Part shown: positions 2,202 through 11,591 of the stretch, in pieces | Position numbering within the stretch: the first letter of the stretch is position 1 | Layout of the letters: each line of letters begins with the position of its first letter | Source of the DNA: a virus | Direction: 5' to 3' (one strand) | Length of the DNA stretch: 44,135 nt | IMG/VR virus record: IMGVR_UViG_3300034069_000450 | Location: 1 to 44,135 of that record | Position numbers and translations under genes: made by a program | The notes under the pieces: model-generated | Databases searched by the model: none | What the model saw: only the letters and a program-made list of their open reading frames with translations | Told to the model about the DNA's origin: nothing

Positions 2202-2933
2202 TCAGTAGCCGGTGTTACCGTTGCGCTCGCTAGGACGCGCCTCTTCCTCGTAACGCTCGAACGGCTCGACAATGGCACAGGCCATCCCCGACATAATGAG
2301 GTAGCGCTCAGCATCCATGAGGTGATCACGCTCTTTGACGATCTTCCCTTTTTCGTCGCGTCGATACAGCCGCCGTTCGGATTTGAGATTGGTTAAGTTG
2401 GCAAACGCCTTCAACCGCGCTGATTGCAGCCGACGATAGACGGCGAAAATGCCAGCCTCGACCTCGTTGTTCGCGAACGACAGGTCTAACCCCATGGTTC
2501 GATACTCATCGATTAGCGCGCGGCCATCAAGCTGTGAGCGCCCACGCGATGCCGGATCGATAACCCCCGGTATCCACCGCCCCCGGGCGCGTAGTCCGTC
2601 CGCATGAACCTGCGGCGGGGCCTCACCGACGTAATACTCGTCGTAGAGGTATACCGTGTCGCTTTCGCGGTCCCAAGCGCCCCAGAGGGCGGCAGTGCGG
2701 TTCCAACCAACGTCGAGGGCAAATGCTCTTGGCCAGTGCCTTGGGATCGGAAAGGGCTCACAGACCCACGTATCCTCGCTCACAGGGTAAATGACGCCCG
2801 ATCCCAGCGCCGGCACACCCTTGGAGCGGGCATCGCGCTGGTGTGGAGGGATCGTCGCCAGCAGCTCAGCCTTGTCATTGTCAGACAGGTGCGGAACGTC
2901 GTCCCAATCGATCTGAATCGACCACTTGCTCAT
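2202..2933 (-). CDS. terL: Terminase large subunit, C-terminal nuclease half (separate ORF)
   Basis: WDDVPHL, RSKGVPALGSGVIYP, FALDVGWNRTAALWGAWD and DHLMDAERY are typical of the RNaseH-like nuclease domain of TerL. Its ATG overlaps the stop of the ATPase ORF (ATGA at 2933-2930). Confidence 0.88.
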   Translation of the reverse strand: MSKWSIQIDWDDVPHLSDNDKAELLATIPPHQRDARSKGVPALGSGVIYPVSEDTWVCEPFPIPRHWPRAFALDVGWNRTAALWGAWDRESDTVYLYDEYYVGEAPPQVHADGLRARGRWIPGVIDPASRGRSQLDGRALIDEYRTMGLDLSFANNEVEAGIFAVYRRLQSARLKAFANLTNLKSERRLYRRDEKGKIVKERDHLMDAERYLIMSGMACAIVEPFERYEEEARPSERNGNTGY

Positions 2934-3622
2934 GCGGCCGGTGCCAGATCGGGCAAGAACGATAGGGCTACATCGGTCAACCCAGAGAGCGGCGTGAACG
3001 TCGCGATCAGCATACCGCGCGTCGTCATCGTGCGGATTACTGCCTCGACGTAGATGTCTTGTGGGGGTTCTTCGTCAAGCCAGATACCGTCGCGCTCGGT
3101 GCCCTGCCACTTCGCACGCCCTTGGTCGTAACTGCGGAACTGACACACGCTGTTGCCGCCGCTCACGTGTCGCACCGTGCCGATGTCGATCAGACCGGGG
3201 ACGCCCGTCGCCGTAGTGGTGCCGACAATAGTCTCGCGCGGAATCATGCCCGTGCCGCGATCCTCCACCGGCCCGAAAAGCTTGCGACACGGCACATCGC
3301 GCGTTGTGGTGCTGGTATCACCGCCGCAAAGCCAGTTGGTCGGACGATCAAATCGATAGCCAGGCCACCAATCCGGATAGAGCCCGGTCAGGTGCAACGT
3401 TACCTCGTAAGCGCCGATACCCTCGCTTTTACCGACGCGGTTAGCAGCGATGGCCGCGCGCTCGCGATGTTCAAGCCCAGCCGCGAAGAATTGCAGGTGC
3501 TTGGCGTAAAGCTCGCGCCGCAACGGGCCTTCGTCGGGATAGTAGGTGTGGAGACGGCGGCCGGCTACGCGGCGCTCCTTCTCCTCAAGCAGGGCGAGTA
3601 GCTCAAGCTTATCGGCGTGCAC
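2930..3622 (-). CDS. terL: Terminase large subunit, N-terminal ATPase half (separate ORF)
   Basis: Walker A is AANRVGKS and Walker B is GIWLDEEP. GTG start overlaps the terS stop by 1 nt. Confidence 0.88.
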   Translation of the reverse strand: MHADKLELLALLEEKERRVAGRRLHTYYPDEGPLRRELYAKHLQFFAAGLEHRERAAIAANRVGKSEGIGAYEVTLHLTGLYPDWWPGYRFDRPTNWLCGGDTSTTTRDVPCRKLFGPVEDRGTGMIPRETIVGTTTATGVPGLIDIGTVRHVSGGNSVCQFRSYDQGRAKWQGTERDGIWLDEEPPQDIYVEAVIRTMTTRGMLIATFTPLSGLTDVALSFLPDLAPAA

Positions 3623-4023
3623 TAGCCTAGAGCCTTCATCTTTGCAGCGATGCGAGCATCTAGGGCGGCGTCGTCCAGACTATGCAGAGGCTGATTGCCG
3701 CTCGTTACGTCGAGCTTGTCACCATAGCGGCGCGGTGCGAGTTTGCTGAGATACCAACGCTCAGCGTCAAAGGCCAATCTCCCCTTTTGGGGATCAGCGG
3801 CAGCCTTCGCATCGTCGACAGCTCGCTCGGCGCGACGATCGAATCCCGTCTCGCGTGCGCGCGCGATAGCGGCGGCAAACTCAGGGTCTTCATTCTGCCA
3901 ACGCTCGACCGTCCGTCGATCAGGCAAGCGCTGATCTTCACAGATCGTGCGCATGCTGTCGCCATTCTCCAGCTTCTCAATGATTTCGTCGCGGACCTCG
4001 GCACCGAATCGGCTGTCCATCAC
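3622..4023 (-). CDS. terS: Terminase small subunit
   Basis: N-terminal HTH-like segment (SMRTICEDQRLPDRRTVERWQ) and the motif ERWYLSKLAPRRYGDK. It sits immediately upstream of terL. Confidence 0.8.
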   Translation of the reverse strand: MMDSRFGAEVRDEIIEKLENGDSMRTICEDQRLPDRRTVERWQNEDPEFAAAIARARETGFDRRAERAVDDAKAAADPQKGRLAFDAERWYLSKLAPRRYGDKLDVTSGNQPLHSLDDAALDARIAAKMKALG

Positions 4024-4310
4024 AAATCCCGTCCCATCTTGATCCTTGGCACCTCAATCTCGTCCGGCCTCCCCATCCTGATCCGCTGCCCACACCTGGG
4101 ACCACGACCACCGCGGTACTCGTCATTCAGGTGGATCAACCCAGCCGCCTCAGCCTGCTTGACGTACCGACGCACGGTACCGTCGTCACTGATCCGTAGC
4201 GCCTCGCGGATCATAGAATAACTAGGCGGATGCCCGGCGGTGGCGATGGTCGCGCGGCAGTAGGCGACCAGCTGGTGCATCCGTGACTGACGAGCGACCG
4301 GCGCGTTCAC
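4020..4310 (-). CDS. Winged-helix DNA-binding protein (LexA-N-terminal-like); possible late regulator
   Basis: GHPPSYSMIREALRISDDGTVRRYVKQAEAAGLI resembles the LexA wHTH. GTG 4310 was chosen because of its GTGA overlap with the upstream stop; ATG 4280 is an alternative start. Confidence 0.5.
   Translation of the reverse strand: MNAPVARQSRMHQLVAYCRATIATAGHPPSYSMIREALRISDDGTVRRYVKQAEAAGLIHLNDEYRGGRGPRCGQRIRMGRPDEIEVPRIKMGRDL
4216..4227 (-). promoter_or_regulatory. Variant of the late motif (CGCCTAGTTATT, one inserted base)
   Basis: Same orientation as the four exact copies. It lies inside the wHTH gene, ~190 nt upstream of the terS start. Confidence 0.25.
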
Positions 4311-4645
4311 TCCCGCCCCTCCCAAGCCCGAATGGCGGAGAGGGCGGCAACATCCGCTGCGATGGCGTCGTATTCTGACTGCGTGGGCCATCCCAACGGC
4401 AGGTCGGGCAGGCCTAGCGTATGCGCCGCCAATTCTGCGGACTTGCTCCGACAGCGAACATCAGAACCGCCGCCAGCCCAGCCCCAGTCCTGCATCGCGA
4501 TGATCCGGAGCGCTAACATCGTTTTTCCCGCGCTCTCAGCCCCCTCCGCCTCGACGGTAGCCCGAGCATGGGCGACGAGCGTTTCGTGCCCTGGCGGTGC
4601 CTTATCGGGCGATTGCGCCCTAATGATAGCTATCTTACGCATCAC
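4307..4645 (-). CDS. Hypothetical protein (112 aa)
   Basis: ORF track. Its start overlaps the stop of the upstream ORF (GTGTGATG). Confidence 0.5.
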   Translation of the reverse strand: MMRKIAIIRAQSPDKAPPGHETLVAHARATVEAEGAESAGKTMLALRIIAMQDWGWAGGGSDVRCRSKSAELAAHTLGLPDLPLGWPTQSEYDAIAADVAALSAIRAWEGRE

Positions 4646-5205
4646 ACTTCCCCGGCCATCTGCTTGCCACGGCGAAGGGCGGCGAGGGCTGCTTTGAATG
4701 AGATGGAATCATCCCACTTCCCTACGAGGGCAGCCTCCCTGTTTGGCCCCGACAGTATCTCGGAGACGATCCGCCGCGCCTCCACCAAATCCTCATCCAC
4801 CTCCGCCGGAAAGCCGGGATCGGCGACGATGGCGCGGGCTTCGGCGTGGCTTTCCCAGCCAAGTTCTCCGAACCGATAATCCACTGCAGCCATTTCCCTC
4901 ACCAAATCCACCATCCGCTGCTGAAGCTCCGGCGATATGACGTGCGCCTCGTTCCCCTCGCACTCCACGGCACCACAGATGCCGCAGGGGTCGCGATGCT
5001 TGTTGGCGGGGGTGTTGCGGATGTGGAAACTCCATGCCGCTACCGGCTCACCATGTGGGGTGAATGCCCCTTCATGCCGTAGCCCATCTACGTGCCATAC
5101 GACGCAGCTGTTGCCGTCGAGGCGGTGCATCGAGACCGCAGCCGCGAACACCCGGCCGTCGTCGTGAACGGCTTGAAGCTCGCCCTTCCAGTCCACCGTC
5201 GTCAT
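4642..5205 (-). CDS. Hypothetical protein (187 aa, Cys cluster CGICGAVEC)
   Basis: ORF track. ATGA overlap with the upstream gene at 5202-5205. Confidence 0.55.
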   Translation of the reverse strand: MTTVDWKGELQAVHDDGRVFAAAVSMHRLDGNSCVVWHVDGLRHEGAFTPHGEPVAAWSFHIRNTPANKHRDPCGICGAVECEGNEAHVISPELQQRMVDLVREMAAVDYRFGELGWESHAEARAIVADPGFPAEVDEDLVEARRIVSEILSGPNREAALVGKWDDSISFKAALAALRRGKQMAGEV

Positions 5206-5567
5206 GCTGCGTCCTCCTGAGTGTCATCGAGCCAGCGAGCGAGCATGTTCACCTCGCGCTGATTGAACCCGCCGACACCCTCGCCGTCCGCATCCTTGCC
5301 GCCAGCGATCCACGCACAGGTCGCAGGGATCAGCTCGTCAGCAATCGCAGGGTGCTTGGCGATCACGTGGGCGAGGAACAGGTTCTTCGGCATGCGATGG
5401 CGCCACGAGCCGATCGCCGTCATCCAACGCACCCACCATTGCGGGCGCATCAAGCCATGCCCGAGAATGTTGGCGGCGATGAACTGGTAATCCTGGCGCC
5501 GAACCATGGCGAGACGGCGAGCAAGCGCCCGGACATCGTCCATCGATTTCGCGTCGTACGTCATCAT
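5202..5567 (-). CDS. Hypothetical protein (121 aa)
   Basis: Internal ATG ATG at 5567 is preceded by GGGGAAGTGAG. The longer track ORF (to 5825) would run through the non-coding repeat array and gives a poly-Pro/Gly translation. Confidence 0.5.
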   Translation of the reverse strand: MMTYDAKSMDDVRALARRLAMVRRQDYQFIAANILGHGLMRPQWWVRWMTAIGSWRHRMPKNLFLAHVIAKHPAIADELIPATCAWIAGGKDADGEGVGGFNQREVNMLARWLDDTQEDAA

Positions 5568-5572
5568 GCCAC

Positions 5573-5719
5573 TCACTTCCCCGCCCTCCACCAATCGAGA
5601 TTGAACCGGACCGTCTCGACCGGGAGCCCGTGGTGCGCTGCGACCTTCACCGGATCGGCCTTCGCGAGCGTAGCCTGGTCCGTAGCCAGTCCGCGGATCA
5701 TCCATTCGGTGAGGGTCAT
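5573..5719 (-). CDS. Small protein (48 aa, MTLTEWMIRGLATDQATLAKADPVKVAAHHGLPVETVRFNLDWWRAGK), HTH-like
   Basis: Not in the track (<60 aa). By my count nearly all codons end in G/C, as in real genes here. Its ATG directly abuts the last half-site of the repeat array. Confidence 0.5.
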   Translation of the reverse strand: MTLTEWMIRGLATDQATLAKADPVKVAAHHGLPVETVRFNLDWWRAGK

Positions 5720-5876
5720 TTGCCGCACCCCACCTTACCGGGCTGAAACCACCCTTGCCGCACTGCCGCACCCCCCACCCCCCTACGGGGGGAGGGGGTG
5801 GTGCGGCACGTTTGCAGCGGTCCAAGTCGCCGCACCTGCCGCACCCTGCCGCACCCGTCGTTTTCGAGGTGCGGCA
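5720..5876. promoter_or_regulatory. Array of 8 TGCCGCAC half-sites (candidate operator cluster, late-operon control region or iteron origin)
   Basis: TGCCGCAC lies at 5721, 5756, 5764, 5837 and 5847. CGCCGCAC is at 5828. The inverted form GTGCGGCA is at 5801 and 5869. Three copies are spaced 9-10 bp apart. The heptamer is the same as in the switch operators. Confidence 0.65.
5765..5807. repeat. Long imperfect GC hairpin (GCCGCACCCCCCACCCCCC-TAC-GGGGGGAGGGGGTGGTGCGGC)
   Basis: Inverted repeat read directly. The outer arms are two opposed TGCCGCAC half-sites and the inner part is a C-run/G-run pairing. Confidence 0.7.
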
Positions 5877-7991
5877 TCACTGTGTGACCCACTTTCCGAC
5901 GACCACAAACTCGCGCTCGTCGCGATTGCGATCGGGCTTCTTGACGACTTCCAGAGCGCCTTCAGCGATCCATCGTTCAACGATAGTTTTGATCCGGGCC
6001 TTCGCGCGTTTCACCTCATCGGTCTTCGCCGAGAGGTCGATGCGAAGGTCTAGAATGTCGACCAGTTGCTGCCCTACCCAAGCCTTTGCCTGGGAGTCGC
6101 GCCGCCAGTCACCATTCCCTAAAGAGTGCTGAAAGCGCATGAGATGCGCGGTCGTGACGCCCGAAAACGCATCCGGAGGTGTCCAGGAACAGGCGACACC
6201 GACGCTATCGCCGTTCGCCAAATCCTGATTGTTCATGCGATACCAATCGCCGCGCTCGGGCGGCGCGAGATTCGCCTTGTCGTTGTCGACGCGAAAGTAG
6301 AAGAACCGCTCATCGGCGGGCACGTTGAGCTTTGCCGCTTCTTCGTCCGTCATCCGGTTGTAGACCAGCACGGACCGAGCCTTGCCGATGAGAGCGGAGG
6401 CGCCGCGGGCGCTGTCTGCGGTGGCCTCCGCCCCGTTCTGCTTGCGGACGTGGTGGACGAGGTTGATCGCCGCGCCGGTGCGCTCAGCAATGACGTTCCA
6501 CTCGCGGGCCACTAAGTCGATCGCGTTGTTGTCGTTCTCCGATACCGCGTGCGAGCTGATGAAAGGATCGACCACCAGCACGTCGATTTTGCGCTCAATC
6601 ATCTCTTCGATGAGCGCATCCACGATGGGCCGCGCGATCATGGCGCCGTCCGGTCCTTCGGTCGCAATAATGAGGGGCTGATCGCGTCCGCTATCCACGT
6701 AAAGCCGGTCGCCAAGTTCTTTCGGGCTGATCTTGAAGCGTTGCGCCGTCGCGTGGAGGCGCCGCTCGATTTCCTCGACCGGGTCTTCTAGGTTCCACAG
6801 CCAGACGCTCAGCGCGCCTTCCGGCAGCCCTTTATCGTAGAGGTCGCGACCGGTTGCCATAGCCATCGCTTCGCCGATCTTCAGCGACGACTTGCCGACA
6901 CCGCCGGCCGCTACATCGACCGACACGAATTTGCGCAGCAGGTGCTTGCCGTAGAGCCATTGACGCTTTGGTATCGCGCTGGTCGGACGCCACGCGAAAG
7001 GAGTTGCCCGCACCAGCTTATCGACTGGCGCGGCAGGTGCGGCAAACAACGCCGCGACATCGGCCATCCCGTACTCCCTGGCCATGTCGTTGAAGTCGTC
7101 GCCGCCATCGGTCACGAGCCCGGCCATGTCCGGCATGATGACCCGCCCGCCCAGCGTGCGCGCCATCGCTTCGGCTGCTTCCTTGCCGACGTTCCGCTGC
7201 ACCTTGGGATGCGCGACGAGATGCCAGTCGTCGTCTCCCGCCACGATCATCTCGCGCCCGGCCCAACGGTGTGAGGCCCAGCGCGCGACGTGAATCATGT
7301 TGCCGGTGTTGACCGCCATCGCGACCGGGTGACCGGTGGCCTGGTGCAGCGTGGCGGCGGTGCTGTACCCTTCCGCGAAGATGACCGGAGAGGTGCCATC
7401 GTCCTGACCGACAAGGAAGTATCCGCCCTCGTGGGTGGTGCCGGGATAGAAGCGGCGCTCGCCATCCTCCCGGATCGCCTGAAGCGACATCGGCTTGTCG
7501 TTGTGATCGCTGATCGGCACGATGACGCAGGGCGCGTCGCCGAGGCCGAAGCGCTTGCCGGATCCCTGCCGCGTGCCGTGGGCCAGCACGCCCTTGCGCT
7601 GAAGGTAGGGGTGGAGCTCGGAGAGCGGCTTGCACTCGCGCCAGAATGCCAGCGCCTCGGCCGCCGCTTCTTGAAAGCCCCGCAGCCGATCAATGTCGCG
7701 CGCCTCACGGCGCCGTGCGATCTCGGCCCGGTCGATCGTCTCGCTGCTGTTCTGACCGAACCAACGGTGACGAACCTTCTCGTCCCGCCAGTCCATGACC
7801 CAGCCAACCGGACGCTCGTCCGCGTGCAGCAGGTAGCGGCCGGGCCGGCTGCCCTTGTGCCGGGTGTCCTCCATGCGGAAGCTGTGCCAGTGACCATCGG
7901 CGATGATGCTGTCGGGCGCGGACCCGCACACGCCTTTGATGAAGGCGCGGAAGTCCTCTTCGATGTCGCGGATCGGAGCGGTCGCCATCAC
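5877..7991 (-). CDS. Bifunctional DNA primase (Toprim) / RecA-type replicative helicase
   Basis: Toprim motif: VIFAEGYSTAATL...MIVAGDDDW. Walker A: DVAAGGVGKSSL. Walker B: DVLVVDPF. 704 aa. Confidence 0.8.
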   Translation of the reverse strand: MMATAPIRDIEEDFRAFIKGVCGSAPDSIIADGHWHSFRMEDTRHKGSRPGRYLLHADERPVGWVMDWRDEKVRHRWFGQNSSETIDRAEIARRREARDIDRLRGFQEAAAEALAFWRECKPLSELHPYLQRKGVLAHGTRQGSGKRFGLGDAPCVIVPISDHNDKPMSLQAIREDGERRFYPGTTHEGGYFLVGQDDGTSPVIFAEGYSTAATLHQATGHPVAMAVNTGNMIHVARWASHRWAGREMIVAGDDDWHLVAHPKVQRNVGKEAAEAMARTLGGRVIMPDMAGLVTDGGDDFNDMAREYGMADVAALFAAPAAPVDKLVRATPFAWRPTSAIPKRQWLYGKHLLRKFVSVDVAAGGVGKSSLKIGEAMAMATGRDLYDKGLPEGALSVWLWNLEDPVEEIERRLHATAQRFKISPKELGDRLYVDSGRDQPLIIATEGPDGAMIARPIVDALIEEMIERKIDVLVVDPFISSHAVSENDNNAIDLVAREWNVIAERTGAAINLVHHVRKQNGAEATADSARGASALIGKARSVLVYNRMTDEEAAKLNVPADERFFYFRVDNDKANLAPPERGDWYRMNNQDLANGDSVGVACSWTPPDAFSGVTTAHLMRFQHSLGNGDWRRDSQAKAWVGQQLVDILDLRIDLSAKTDEVKRAKARIKTIVERWIAEGALEVVKKPDRNRDEREFVVVGKWVTQ

Positions 7992-8110
7992 GCGTGCACC
8001 AGCCCGAGGCGGTGTATGAAATACTCCACCTGGTCGCCCCAGAGCGTGCCGCGCTTATAGGCCGCGAAGATCGCTCGCTTAAGGCGGCTGTGGTACGGGT
8101 AGAGCCTCAC
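7988..8110 (-). CDS. Small hypothetical protein (40 aa)
   Basis: GTG start in a GTGA overlap with the VRR-NUC stop; its stop overlaps the primase ATG. The C-terminal part of track ORF 7988..8389 reads as plausible protein (LYPYHSRLKRAIFAAYKRGTLWGDQVEYFIHRLGLVHA). Confidence 0.4.
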   Translation of the reverse strand: MRLYPYHSRLKRAIFAAYKRGTLWGDQVEYFIHRLGLVHA

Positions 8111-8547
8111 GCCGCCAACCGCCCAACAACAGGCGCCCCCCACTCGGCGAGCAAAGCCAACGCATATTCCGGCGTCCGCACGATCGCGCATCGGTGGCCA
8201 GCGTCCTGAAGGTAGTTGAGCAGGTCGACTTGGCTGTCGCTCGGCTTGCCCTTGGCATCCTTGAACTCGACGAAGGCAACACCGTGATTCCAGACCAGCG
8301 TCAGGTCGGGCACGCCGGCCTTCAGCCCCTCCTTTTTTGCCTTGACGCGGTCCTTGAGGCCGCGATTGTGGCCATTCGGCACCGCCCACGCCATGACGGA
8401 CGGGGCGGCGATGCGCAGGAGCGCGAGGAACGTCGTCTGGCGCTCGATCTCGGTTGCCAGCCCGTGGTCGACCGGCTCAACCGTGAACCGCGGCATCGGC
8501 TTCAACGGTTCGTCGAAGCCATCCATCATGGCGAACGCGGCGCTCAC
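8107..8547 (-). CDS. VRR-NUC family nuclease
   Basis: PD-(D/E)xK signature: GVPDLTLVWNHGVAFVEFKDAKGKPSDSQ. Confidence 0.75.
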   Translation of the reverse strand: MSAAFAMMDGFDEPLKPMPRFTVEPVDHGLATEIERQTTFLALLRIAAPSVMAWAVPNGHNRGLKDRVKAKKEGLKAGVPDLTLVWNHGVAFVEFKDAKGKPSDSQVDLLNYLQDAGHRCAIVRTPEYALALLAEWGAPVVGRLAA

Positions 8548-8753
8548 TTCAGCCGTCCCTTTCGGGCCGCGACCGCCTGAATAATGTCCAGCCGCTTGCG
8601 CTTGTCGGTGATGCCGCGCTGTCGGCAGAGGTCATCCGCGTCGAGGTAGCGCGCGCGGCGATCGTCGCAGCCCCAGATCAGCTGAAGCACCTGCACCGAC
8701 TGGTCGGCCTGGGTGAGCGGCTGGTTGCCTTTCGGCTTGAACGCCGGCCTCAC
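8544..8753 (-). CDS. Hypothetical protein (69 aa)
   Basis: GTG 8753 lies in a GTGA overlap with the upstream stop; the track start 8783 is an alternative. Confidence 0.45.
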   Translation of the reverse strand: MRPAFKPKGNQPLTQADQSVQVLQLIWGCDDRRARYLDADDLCRQRGITDKRKRLDIIQAVAARKGRLK

Positions 8754-9343
8754 GCGACCAGCTTCCAAGCGTCCGGCTGCCACCCGTTGCGCTCGGCGCG
8801 CTCGATCACCTCTTCAGCGGTCAGCACGATCGACCCCCGCCGCCAGTACGTGCCATTCTCGGCGTAGCGGCCGCGCTCATCGCAGCGGACGACGGGACCG
8901 AAGTGGCGAAGATAATCGGCAGCCTGGCCGGCACGGGAGACATCGCGCCGCGGTCGATCTATGGCGCCTGTCCGGCTGCCCGCGCTTACAATGGTCCCGA
9001 AACTGGCCTTGGACTTGGCGAACTGAACCGCGTGAGCGATCTTGACACCAGCCGCGCGCCCGATCCCTGTTTCCTGCACCCACCGCATGACTGCGGTCGG
9101 GCTGGCTTGATAATGCTTCGCTAACTTGACGATCGACATCTCGGCATGTCGTGCTGCGAAGTCATCTGGCGCCGGCCGCTTGACCGCCTTCTCGCCATGA
9201 ATCAGCGAAATGCCGGTCTCGGCTTCCCAGCGAGCGAGCACCTTGTGATTGCGACCCCAGCGCCGGCGGGCGGCGTTGACGCCAAGCGTAGGAGCGAATT
9301 CGGCCCAGTCAGCCGGCGCTGGGGCCATCGGGCGAGGGCTCAT
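8750..9343 (-). CDS. DNA-binding protein with two HTH-like repeats (possible replication or regulatory factor)
   Basis: Internal repeat: LGVNAARRRWGRNHKVLARWEAETGI versus MSIVKLAKHYQASPTAVMRWVQETGI. Confidence 0.5.
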   Translation of the reverse strand: MSPRPMAPAPADWAEFAPTLGVNAARRRWGRNHKVLARWEAETGISLIHGEKAVKRPAPDDFAARHAEMSIVKLAKHYQASPTAVMRWVQETGIGRAAGVKIAHAVQFAKSKASFGTIVSAGSRTGAIDRPRRDVSRAGQAADYLRHFGPVVRCDERGRYAENGTYWRRGSIVLTAEEVIERAERNGWQPDAWKLVA

Positions 9344-10031: not shown

Positions 10032-10436
10032 CTAGGCGGCTCGCGAAGCTTGTTCGGTAAACTCGCGAGTGACTCGACGCGCAAGTTGAGCGATTTCTTC
10101 GGAATTGCTGCGATGCCCGGCAAGATGCCGCTTCACGCCCTTAATCAGCGCGCCTTGCGACCACCAATCAAGACTCACCTTACGCCCGCCAGTGGAGGCC
10201 GGACGGCCATCTATAGCAAGCTCAAAACCATACCATCTATTAGCGATCCACATCGAGACACCGCACCGGCGATGCGTCAGATGATAGTGGTCGGTGTCCC
10301 ATCCTTCGCCAGCATCAAGCAGGAGCAGCACCATCTCGGCTGCCGGATGCAGGCGCTTCCAGAAGCAAAGACGGCGCCAACCACGAATAAGCGAGCGCGG
10401 GTTCCGCTCACACCGCTGCCACGGATCCGCAGTCAT
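10032..10436 (-). CDS. Hypothetical early protein (134 aa)
   Basis: ORF track. Second gene of the Cro-side operon. Confidence 0.5.
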   Translation of the reverse strand: MTADPWQRCERNPRSLIRGWRRLCFWKRLHPAAEMVLLLLDAGEGWDTDHYHLTHRRCGVSMWIANRWYGFELAIDGRPASTGGRKVSLDWWSQGALIKGVKRHLAGHRSNSEEIAQLARRVTREFTEQASRAA

Positions 10437-10627
10437 GCTGCGGCCTGCGACAGCCGGGCGAGCGCGCTATTGAGCGCCACCATCGTGTTCATACGAGGCG
10501 CCATGCCGTTGCGGATGCGCTGGATTTGGGAACGGCTGATGCCGCTAGCTTCGGCAAGAGCGCCTGTCTGGACGCCAGCCTCTGACATCGCGCGCTCAAG
10601 CCAGGCGGGGTCATAGGAAGTGGGCAT
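10433..10627 (-). CDS. Cro-like HTH (XRE-type) regulator
   Basis: HTH: TGALAEASGISRSQIQRIRNG. 64 aa, first gene of the leftward arm, divergent from the repressor gene. Confidence 0.75.
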   Translation of the reverse strand: MPTSYDPAWLERAMSEAGVQTGALAEASGISRSQIQRIRNGMAPRMNTMVALNSALARLSQAAA

Positions 10628-10632
10628 GCCAT

Positions 10633-10662
10633 CTTATATGCCGCACTTATGCGGCAAAGCAA
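10633..10662 (-). promoter_or_regulatory. Candidate early-left promoter (TTGCTT-N18-TATAAG); possibly produces a leaderless cro mRNA
   Basis: On the minus strand the -35 is 10662-10657 and the -10 is 10638-10633. The 18-nt spacer is exactly operator O1. Only 5 nt separate the -10 from ATG 10627. Confidence 0.5.
10639..10656. promoter_or_regulatory. Operator O1: perfect palindrome TGCCGCA-CTTA-TGCGGCA
   Basis: 7-bp perfect inverted arms read directly. It lies in the cro/repressor intergenic region. Confidence 0.75.
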
Positions 10663-11252: not shown

Positions 11253-11270
11253 TGCCGCATTAATGCGCTT
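11253..11270. promoter_or_regulatory. Operator-like site O3: TGCCGCA-TTAA-TGCGCTT (one good half-site)
   Basis: Left arm is exact; right arm matches 4 of 7 positions. Confidence 0.35.
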
Positions 11271-11297
11271 GACGATGCCGCATTAGCGCGGCATATA
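11269..11297 (+). promoter_or_regulatory. Candidate rightward promoter TTGACG-N17-CATATA
   Basis: -35 at 11269-11274 and -10 at 11292-11297. The spacer is occupied by operator O4. SD GAGGAGG and ATG 11340 lie downstream. Confidence 0.55.
11276..11293. promoter_or_regulatory. Operator O4: TGCCGCA-TTAG-CGCGGCA
   Basis: 7-4-7 palindrome with one mismatch, between the -35 and -10 of the rightward promoter. Confidence 0.65.
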
Positions 11298-11339: not shown

Positions 11340-11591
11340 ATGGTCACCGCCAAGAAGCACGGCCGCAATGGCACCCGCTACAGCAACGGCCGCGATAGCG
11401 TAGTCATCTACCCGTTCCGCTCTGGCTATGCCTCGCGCGTCAGCCGCAGCGATGGCCGCATTTTCCGCGCTTTCCACCCGGATCGCGCCGATGCAGCGTA
11501 TCTCGCTGGCGAGTGGATGGACCCGGAGCAGAACGGGCGCTTTATCCTCGACAACGACATGGCTCGTCTGCGTCAGCAGGTGGCGGCATGA
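11340..11591 (+). CDS. Hypothetical protein (83 aa)
   Basis: ORF track. SD GAGGAGG lies 6 nt upstream. First gene of the rightward operon. Confidence 0.55.
   Translation: MVTAKKHGRNGTRYSNGRDSVVIYPFRSGYASRVSRSDGRIFRAFHPDRADAAYLAGEWMDPEQNGRFILDNDMARLRQQVAA

Follow-up and report, generated by a model that had tools for sequence, protein, structure and literature searches.

An array of short repeats behind a RepA-type primase-helicase gene is a probable replication origin in a family of alphaproteobacterial phages

In several mobile elements the replication origin lies directly downstream of the gene of an initiator-helicase and is read by the C-terminal domain of that helicase (PMC9371898, where this is a winged-helix domain; PMC7581432; PMC4234260). 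Iterons behind their own gene have been studied experimentally for Rep and PriRep5 of the Staphylococcus aureus pathogenicity islands (SaPI; PMC9371898) and for Cch2 of the staphylococcal cassette chromosome mec (SCCmec; PMC7581432). Here we describe an intergenic region of 157 bp at positions 5720-5876 of the virus record IMGVR_UViG_3300034069_000450, of which the whole stretch of 44,135 nucleotides (the window) was analysed. All coordinates refer to this 44-kb window, and the gene direction in this part of it is the minus strand. The region holds eight copies of a short repeat behind the stop codon of a primase-helicase gene. We regard it, with a probability of about 0.8, as the replication origin of the phage, in which the helicase itself would read the iterons through its winged-helix-like C-terminal domain. 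An iteron origin beside a replication gene is an ordinary and known layout. Of interest here are the class of the helicase, the unusually clean covariation of residues with bases, a possible second site inside the gene and an undescribed family of alphaproteobacterial phages. Full-text literature searches did not find a description of the origin of this helicase family.

A comparison of this locus with the SaPI systems shows a close agreement in design. The array is found immediately 3' of the helicase gene, as are the origins of Rep and PriRep5 (PMC9371898, PMC7581432). The SaPI origin consists of 6-12 short iterons which flank a central region in opposite directions, as is the case here, and SaPI Rep reads them by a C-terminal winged-helix domain, as we propose for the window. 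In PriRep5 a primase is fused to the helicase, like here, and the SaPI systems do not need a separate initiator or loader, which would hold here as well. The differences lie in the parts. SaPI Reps are AAA+ (MCM/SF3-like) 3'-5' helicases, whereas the window encodes an RSF1010-RepA-like RecA fold (AAA_25). The SaPI iterons are 5-6 bp long and those of the window 9 bp, the centre is not clearly AT-rich here, an additional palindrome of G- and C-runs is present, and the hosts are alphaproteobacterial. A second comparable case is ORF904 of pRN1, which likewise unites primase and helicase with a winged helix at the C-terminus, with an origin just downstream of its gene and a stem-loop that is conserved in structure, not in sequence, as here (PMC4234260). 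Unlike the window, pRN1 is a plasmid of archaea, its primase is of the prim-pol and its helicase of the SF3 type, and it has a 100-nt stem-loop and no iterons (PMC4234260).

For the helicase core the closest described system is RSF1010, whose RepA is homologous and whose origin likewise has iterons and a large palindrome. In RSF1010 this palindrome contains ssiA and ssiB, which are sites of single-strand priming. Its oriV uses RepA, RepB' and RepC, of which RepC binds 20-bp iterons, while RepA is without a DNA-reading domain. In the window, by contrast, the iterons have 9 bp, and the helicase has its own reader domain and a fused toprim-type primase. No RepC-like protein was found in the early operon by Pfam and PHROGs scans. 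The alpha protein of phage P4, reportedly described by Ziegelin et al. in 1993 and 1995 and by Yeo et al. in 2002, is said to be a single polypeptide of toprim primase, helicase and, at the C-terminus, a winged helix which binds the origin. It binds octamer iterons as well as a second, distant cis site named crr, and its helicase is of the SF3 type. Unlike the array in the window, the P4 origin is not known to adjoin the 3' end of the alpha gene. The crr site may find a parallel in a pair of iteron-like sites at 7027-7044 inside the helicase gene, to which we return below. No sequence similarity was detected between the C-terminal domains of P4 alpha and of the window's helicase, and P4 was not among the Foldseek matches of the latter domain. 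The system works like the class of SaPI Rep, P4 alpha and SCCmec Cch2, whose helicase cores are of the AAA+/SF3 type, with a RecA-fold helicase that is not homologous to those.

The array begins right behind the helicase stop codon (5877-5879). As the initial annotation had stated, eight sites are found in the gap, namely seven exact copies of TGCCGCAC, at 5721, 5756, 5764, 5837 and 5847 on the plus strand and at 5801 and 5869 on the minus strand, and one variant, CGCCGCAC, at 5828. Exact copies of TGCCGCAC number 11 in the whole window, compared with 4.03 ± 1.93 in dinucleotide-preserving shuffles. The seven within 157 bp stand against about 0.014 expected, so that the clear cluster claimed there is a real one, and a Poisson estimate from the shuffle counts gives a probability of about 1e-17 for a cluster by chance. 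The extended consensus is the 9-mer TGCCGCACC, which reads GGTGCGGCA on the opposite strand.

The sites are arranged in two inverted-repeat units and a last single site. In the first unit iteron S1 (5868-5876, plus strand), which reads GGTGCGGCA on the plus strand and is inverted relative to the helicase gene, directly follows the stop codon. An A-rich spacer of 12 bp (5856-5867, TCGAAAACGACG in helicase direction), a candidate melting site, separates it from three direct sites on the minus strand, which are S2 (5847-5855), S3 (5837-5845, 10 bp from S2) and the degenerate S4 (5828-5836, GGTGCGGCG, 9 bp from S3). The spacing of 9-10 bp among the sites at 5828, 5837 and 5847 had been noticed before and holds. 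The second unit consists of the inverted S5 (5800-5808, plus strand), a palindrome of G- and C-runs, and the direct sites S6 (5764-5772, minus strand) and S7 (5756-5764, minus strand), the latter with 8 of 9 bases (AGTGCGGCA) and abutting S6. S6 and S5 are the outer arms of the imperfect palindrome (5764-5808), whose core at 5772-5799 is a C-run, the loop TAC and a G-run. The hairpin with opposed sites as outer arms, as described initially, is thus present, with 18 pairs arranged as 6 + 5 + 7, one A/A mismatch and one 1x3 internal loop. Folded as single-stranded DNA, 5715-5885 reaches -54.7 kcal/mol (z = -4.75 compared with shuffles). A search of Rfam with the palindrome returned only sub-threshold matches to microRNA hairpins and no known RNA family. 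The last direct site, S8 (5721-5729, minus strand), is one base away from the ATG (5717-5719) of a 48-aa open reading frame (ORF) at 5573-5719.

This array is a constant companion of the helicase gene. A collection of helicase homologues, drawn from viral contigs and from bacteria at one genome per species, comprises 96 mostly alphaproteobacterial loci (given by L numbers below); 66 of them are non-redundant and comprise alphaproteobacterial phages, prophages and two phage-like plasmids. Sites were counted as 9-mers with at most one mismatch in the 263 bp past the helicase stop codon. The 66 loci have 7.1 sites on average (range 4-12, minimum 4), compared with 0.32 in 2,076 control windows from the same loci. 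The array was present in 66 of 66. In nearly all 96 loci an over-represented 8-mer lies within 300 bp past the helicase stop, and the array accompanies the helicase gene in about 80 related loci regardless of the gene that follows. In the window as well as in L001 and L055 a small ORF comes next, whereas in L002, L003, L006, L010, L011 and L013 the next gene is SSB-like (single-stranded DNA-binding protein), as judged by eye from a start of the type MAGSVNKV...GNLG.DPE; still other genes come next elsewhere. Homologues that consist of the helicase only, without the primase domain, still carry the array. As the next gene varies and the helicase-only homologues keep the array, the helicase is its sole constant partner.

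Not only the sites but also their layout is shared. Behind the stop codon come an inverted site, a spacer of 12-16 bp with an A- or T-tract and two to three direct sites 9-10 bp apart; after about 25 bp there follows an inverted site, fused with a palindrome ending in one or two direct sites, and after about 25 bp more a direct site abutting the next ATG. The first inverted site is at most 8 nt from the stop codon in 45 of the 66 loci, two or more direct sites come after an inverted one in 59, and an inverted-then-direct pair with 18-28 bp from start to start in 33. The tract in the spacer is kept at the same place in relatives (for example YTCGAAAA or TTGAAAA), and the final site abutting the next start codon, GGTGNNGCAAATG, recurs among them. 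A palindrome is found about 75-105 nt past the stop codon in most relatives, usually as a C-run, an A/T-rich loop and a G-run, with differing stem sequences that are quite unlike these in L052, L014, L029 and L033. The palindrome score is 8.8 on average and 5.7 in controls. Since the score exceeds that of the controls and the stems differ, it is the structure or symmetry that is conserved, not the sequence.

Evidence for the reader of the array comes from the repeat word itself, which differs from locus to locus; GTGCGGCA, GTGTGGCA, GTGGGGCA, GTGGCGCA, GTGGAGCA, GTGGTGCA, GTTCGGCA, GTGAGGAA and CTGGAGCA are examples. We aligned the last 125 residues of the helicases and calculated the mutual information of every column with every site position against a permutation null. 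The top pair of this unbiased scan is base 7 with Arg690 (z = 15.2). A C at base 7 goes with Arg690 in 54 of 54 loci; the 12 loci without it, whose sites end in GAA, GGA or similar, all have Gly, Ser, Ala or Gln (Fisher 2e-13). Base 1 pairs with Gln634 (z = 15.0), with Gln in 54 of 56 loci with G1 and Arg or Lys in 8 of 10 with C1. Base 5 pairs with Asp691 (z = 13.8): G5 is accompanied mostly by Met, Asn, Glu or Asp (33 of 38 loci), C5 by Lys or His, A5 by Lys, Arg or Gln, and T5 by Gln in three of four loci. For base 4 (CGG, TGG and GGG words) no clean single-residue rule was seen by eye, and many arrays mix words; this base may be read weakly.

Because relatedness inflates mutual-information scores, changes were also counted by parsimony. 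When a neighbour-joining tree is built from the helicase core without the C-terminal domain, base 7 and Arg690 change on the same nine branches. A tree of the C-terminal domain from which the wing and Gln634 columns had been removed gave an identical result, with the same nine branches, and therefore the objection of a mere block swap of domain and array is answered. Comparative evidence of this kind argues for a C-terminal domain that specifically recognises its cognate iterons. A contact of Arg690 with the guanine of the C:G pair, lost along with that pair, would be chemically sensible. If this rule is true, R690G (or R690S) would shift the preference from GTGCGGCA to GTGCGGAA, and Q634R would shift it toward CTGCGGCA.

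The helicase which carries these residues is encoded on the minus strand at 5877-7991 (704 aa) and consists of a toprim-type primase (PHROG DNA primase phrog_2249, E 2e-53), an RSF1010-RepA-like core (Pfam AAA_25, E 8e-37) and, past it, about 110 residues with the C-terminal domain. In the PDB the core matches the hexameric helicase RepA of RSF1010 (1G8Y, E 1e-14). The C-terminal domain, the proposed iteron reader, covers residues 600-704 and is encoded at 5880-6194 on the minus strand. An AlphaFold2 model of the last 150 residues has a pLDDT of about 90 across the last 90, which fold as two helices, then a long basic helix and a beta-hairpin. In this model Gln634 is located in a loop and Arg690 and Asp691 at the tip of the beta-hairpin wing. 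The Foldseek matches of the model are winged-helix domains, namely BLM RQC (3WE2, the best one), PadR/LmrR and the N-terminal domain of DnaD, and the domain is thus predicted to be winged-helix-like. Its family comprises 699 clusters at 50% identity, in which its position is always C-terminal.

Where the C-terminus is of another kind, the repeats differ as well. In some homologues the N-terminus is the same and the C-terminus non-homologous, and in the first 170 nt past the stop unrelated iterons occupy the same place, again with a palindrome: CCGGACA in L016 and L051, CGAACAT in L020, L021 and L032, and GCGGAAGT in L057. The pattern in these six loci looks like the modular exchange of a cassette of reader domain plus origin.

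Two iteron-like sites also stand in tandem inside the helicase gene, at 7027-7044 on the plus strand and at a distance of 1.15 kb to the array; the coding strand there, TTGCCGCACCTGCCGCGCC, encodes FAAPAAP in the linker between primase and helicase. The same tandem pair is found in L001, L004, L006, L007, L052 and L053, which belong to one subclade only. The in-gene word matches the word of the array, as L004 and L007 carry TGCCACAC twice, encoding ATLATP and ATPATP. Ala-to-Thr changes in the linker may be the means by which the DNA word is kept within the gene. The pair may be an auxiliary binding locus or second cis site like crr of P4, and we treat it as a candidate for this role.

A scan that started from the DNA, with tandem GTGCGGCA-NN-GTGCGGCA as query, found 48 viral contigs, mostly with isolated pairs and without an array. 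True clusters of the window's word occur right 3' of helicase genes of this family (L100, L107, L121 and L132), and also right 3' of two unrelated SF3 primase-helicases, one VapE-like (L110, 2368-2512) and one of the D5_N/DUF5906 type (L143, 270-370). The arrays of the latter two consist of (A)GTGCGGCAC, which is nearly the word of the window, and homology of their helicase C-termini to the window's C-terminal domain was not detectable. As a separate observation, a domesticated relative of such origins could be present in Bartonella grahamii, whose run-off replication origin is located near a phage helicase (PMC2697382).

The module is also present outside of phage contigs. Microvirga (two species), Rhodoplanes and Methylobacterium have circular 'plasmids', four in all and 31-54 kb in size, that encode a homologous helicase. 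The records are NZ_AP024151.1 (pVL1_6) and NZ_CP102848.1 (pR24_3), which were read as L147-L149, together with NZ_LR026982.1 and NZ_CP141051.1, which are helicase matches only. In both pVL1_6 and pR24_3 a toprim protein, a RepA-type helicase and an iteron array are found, and the Methylobacterium and Microvirga circles with module and array have 31-40 kb. On pVL1_6 no replication genes are recognisable other than those of the module, which lies together with genes for a tape-measure protein, an integrase, ParA and two toxin-antitoxin pairs; this combination makes pVL1_6 a probable phage-plasmid.

We read the array as an origin because its layout matches that of the studied initiator-helicases, because true clusters in the scan from the DNA lie right behind helicase genes, because no other initiator was recognisable in the early operon by Pfam and PHROGs scans and because circular plasmids carry the module. 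The suggestion of the initial annotation that these are iterons of an origin beside the helicase gene is thus strongly supported, with an array that accompanies the helicase and a word that co-evolves with residues of its C-terminal domain. Origin activity itself is suggested by position, layout and precedents. The clustering, the conservation with the helicase gene, the word-residue co-evolution and the prediction of a winged-helix-like fold are demonstrated, and a sequence of events can be proposed by analogy with SaPI Rep, P4 alpha and SCCmec Cch2. The C-terminal domains would bind the eight iterons, a step that the covariation supports, with Gln634 reading base 1, Asp691 base 5 and Arg690 base 7. 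The oppositely oriented sites would recruit helicase subunits from both sides, and two hexamers may assemble head to head. The DNA might then open in unit 1, at its A-rich spacer, or in unit 2, at the palindrome once this is extruded, and rings of the RepA type could encircle the single strands and load without a separate initiator or loader; self-loading of the primase-helicase is probable. The fused toprim domain would finally prime for the host polymerase.

Several observations weigh against such an origin. No clearly AT-rich unwinding element stands out in the array, in which the S1-S2 spacer, with its conserved A- or T-tract, has 50% A+T (genome about 37%) and unit 2 has a palindrome of G- and C-runs instead. 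No origin signal comes from the GC skew of the window, which is dominated by gene orientation. The Foldseek matches of the domain are weak (best E 8e-3, TM 0.35-0.48). Sharing of a word raises the overall identity of the domain modestly, by 2.4 percentage points (permutation p = 0.0045), and the covariation demonstrates that domain and repeats co-evolve, not what binding achieves. Furthermore, Rhizobium phage RHph_X2_26, whose helicase (43% identity) is the only related one from a phage in culture, carries no array 3' of the gene or in the next gap. A near-identity DNA search with 4000-9000 gave no cultured phage.

Among other functions of the array, the one that survives best is transcription control. 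The C-terminal domain might bind the sites mainly as a roadblock or operator that gates read-through toward the genes of the small and large terminase (terS/terL), or for autoregulation. The position between the replication and the late-proximal genes and the final site abutting the next start codon would suit this, and plasmid iteron-binding initiators often autoregulate too. In L052, L014 and L086 a perfect TTGACA and, 17 nt past it, a hexamer that contains TAT enclose the fifth iteron, about 60-90 nt past the helicase stop, which suggests a promoter inside the origin of these relatives. The window is without a counterpart, however. No sigma-70-like promoter was found in a scan of 5300-6300 and no intrinsic terminator in 5720-5876, where a T-run follows the palindrome on neither strand, and under a stricter scan just one of the 66 loci shows a promoter-like pair. 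Relative to the regulator's own gene the sites are found downstream and not at the promoter, and the array stays with the helicase whichever gene follows. Inverted units around a central spacer are moreover the layout of a helicase-assembly origin (PMC9371898). We therefore consider transcription control unlikely as the main function of the array; it may exist in addition to origin function, since the two are not mutually exclusive.

The initial annotation had also proposed a second operator region for CI or Cro, with OL/OR-like logic, based on the heptamer TGCCGCA as half-site of the operators at the switch. This half-site is indeed found in three operator dyads, TGCCGCA-N4/5-TGCGGCA, at 10639-10656 in the cro/cI gap and at 11253-11270 and 11276-11293. 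The latter two overlap a promoter on the plus strand (TTGACG-17-CATATA, 11269-11297), ahead of an ORF at 11340-11591 and downstream of cI. A contig with a 66%-identical CI (L098) keeps all three dyads (1869-1886 and 2480-2520 of L098), and hence the dyads belong to that repressor family. The heptamer is common to dyads and array, but the further evidence speaks against binding of CI or Cro to the array. The operator spacer has 4-5 bp, whereas the inverted pairs of the array are 16 and 30 bp apart and contain no such dyad. The operator half-sites are mostly AATGCGGCA and the iterons GGTGCGGCA, and unlike the second and third operators (O2 and O3) the array has no sigma-70-like promoter. No homologue of this CI or Cro was detected within the 4-kb upstream flank of the 96 helicase loci, including eight with the identical TGCCGCAC word, and no operator-type dyad was found at a switch in the related loci. 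Conversely, L098, read over 8.4 kb at one end, is neither among the helicase-homologue matches nor among the 48 contigs with tandem GTGCGGCA-NN-GTGCGGCA. As the repeat word tracks helicase residues, and with neither an operator-spaced dyad, a promoter nor a nearby CI or Cro homologue, the proposal that CI or Cro controls a second promoter at the array did not stand up, and we consider it very improbable. The overlap of the heptamer looks like coincidence; a weak cross-talk of CI or Cro with the array is conceivable.

Equally improbable is a packaging region (pac or cos) for the small terminase or a centromere-like partition site: short repeated sites do lie upstream of terS in some phages, terS follows about 400-650 bp past the array in several relatives (for example L041, L040 and L053) and pVL1_6 carries ParA, but terS of the window is 1.7 kb away with five ORFs between, the array is tied to the stop codon of the helicase and not to terS, the covariation involves helicase residues, and neither ParB nor ParA was seen in the scanned region of the window.

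With the origin reading, both an origin and the protein that reads it are assigned for a family of temperate phages and phage-like plasmids of alphaproteobacteria that is large and so far uncharacterised. It also suggests that the design of an initiator-helicase with a 3' origin arose on a RecA-fold (RepA/DnaB-class) helicase besides the AAA+/SF3 type; if true, this design faces a loading problem of opposite polarity. We would put at even odds the full proposal, in which a RecA-fold helicase of the RSF1010-RepA class is its own sequence-specific initiator and loads itself at iterons via an appended winged helix, under a reprogrammable rule of Arg690 with C:G at base 7, residue 691 with base 5 and Gln634 with base 1, and in which one subclade perhaps also binds the in-gene pair. 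Under such a rule the specificity of the helicase would have been rewritten repeatedly during evolution and would be open to reprogramming. The rule could also help to predict replicon incompatibility or cross-talk among co-resident prophages, and could serve the building of small replicons for Sphingomonas, Methylobacterium and relatives.

The genes around the array follow one another on the minus strand. They run from a Cro-like HTH (helix-turn-helix) protein (10433-10627) through four ORFs without a family match to a VRR-NUC nuclease (8107-8547) and the primase-helicase. The array at 5720-5876 separates the helicase gene from the 48-aa ORF (5573-5719), which is directly 3' of it. The earlier description of an array ending at the ATG of an HTH-like ORF is right as to the adjacency, with S8 one base off, and does not hold as to the HTH, since neither an HTH family nor any other family was matched in Pfam or PHROGs. 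This ORF is not a constant partner of the array; its sole tblastn homologue among the related loci is in L055. NCBIfam gave zero matches for the helicase and the neighbouring ORFs. Four further small ORFs lead to an Sf6-type small terminase (terS, 3622-4023). The large terminase is split into an ATPase half (Terminase_6N, 2930-3622) and a nuclease half (Terminase_6C, 2202-2933), which overlap by 4 nt. PHROGs has a family of its own for either half (phrog_31467 and phrog_5653), so this split may be genuine in this group and not a sequencing error.

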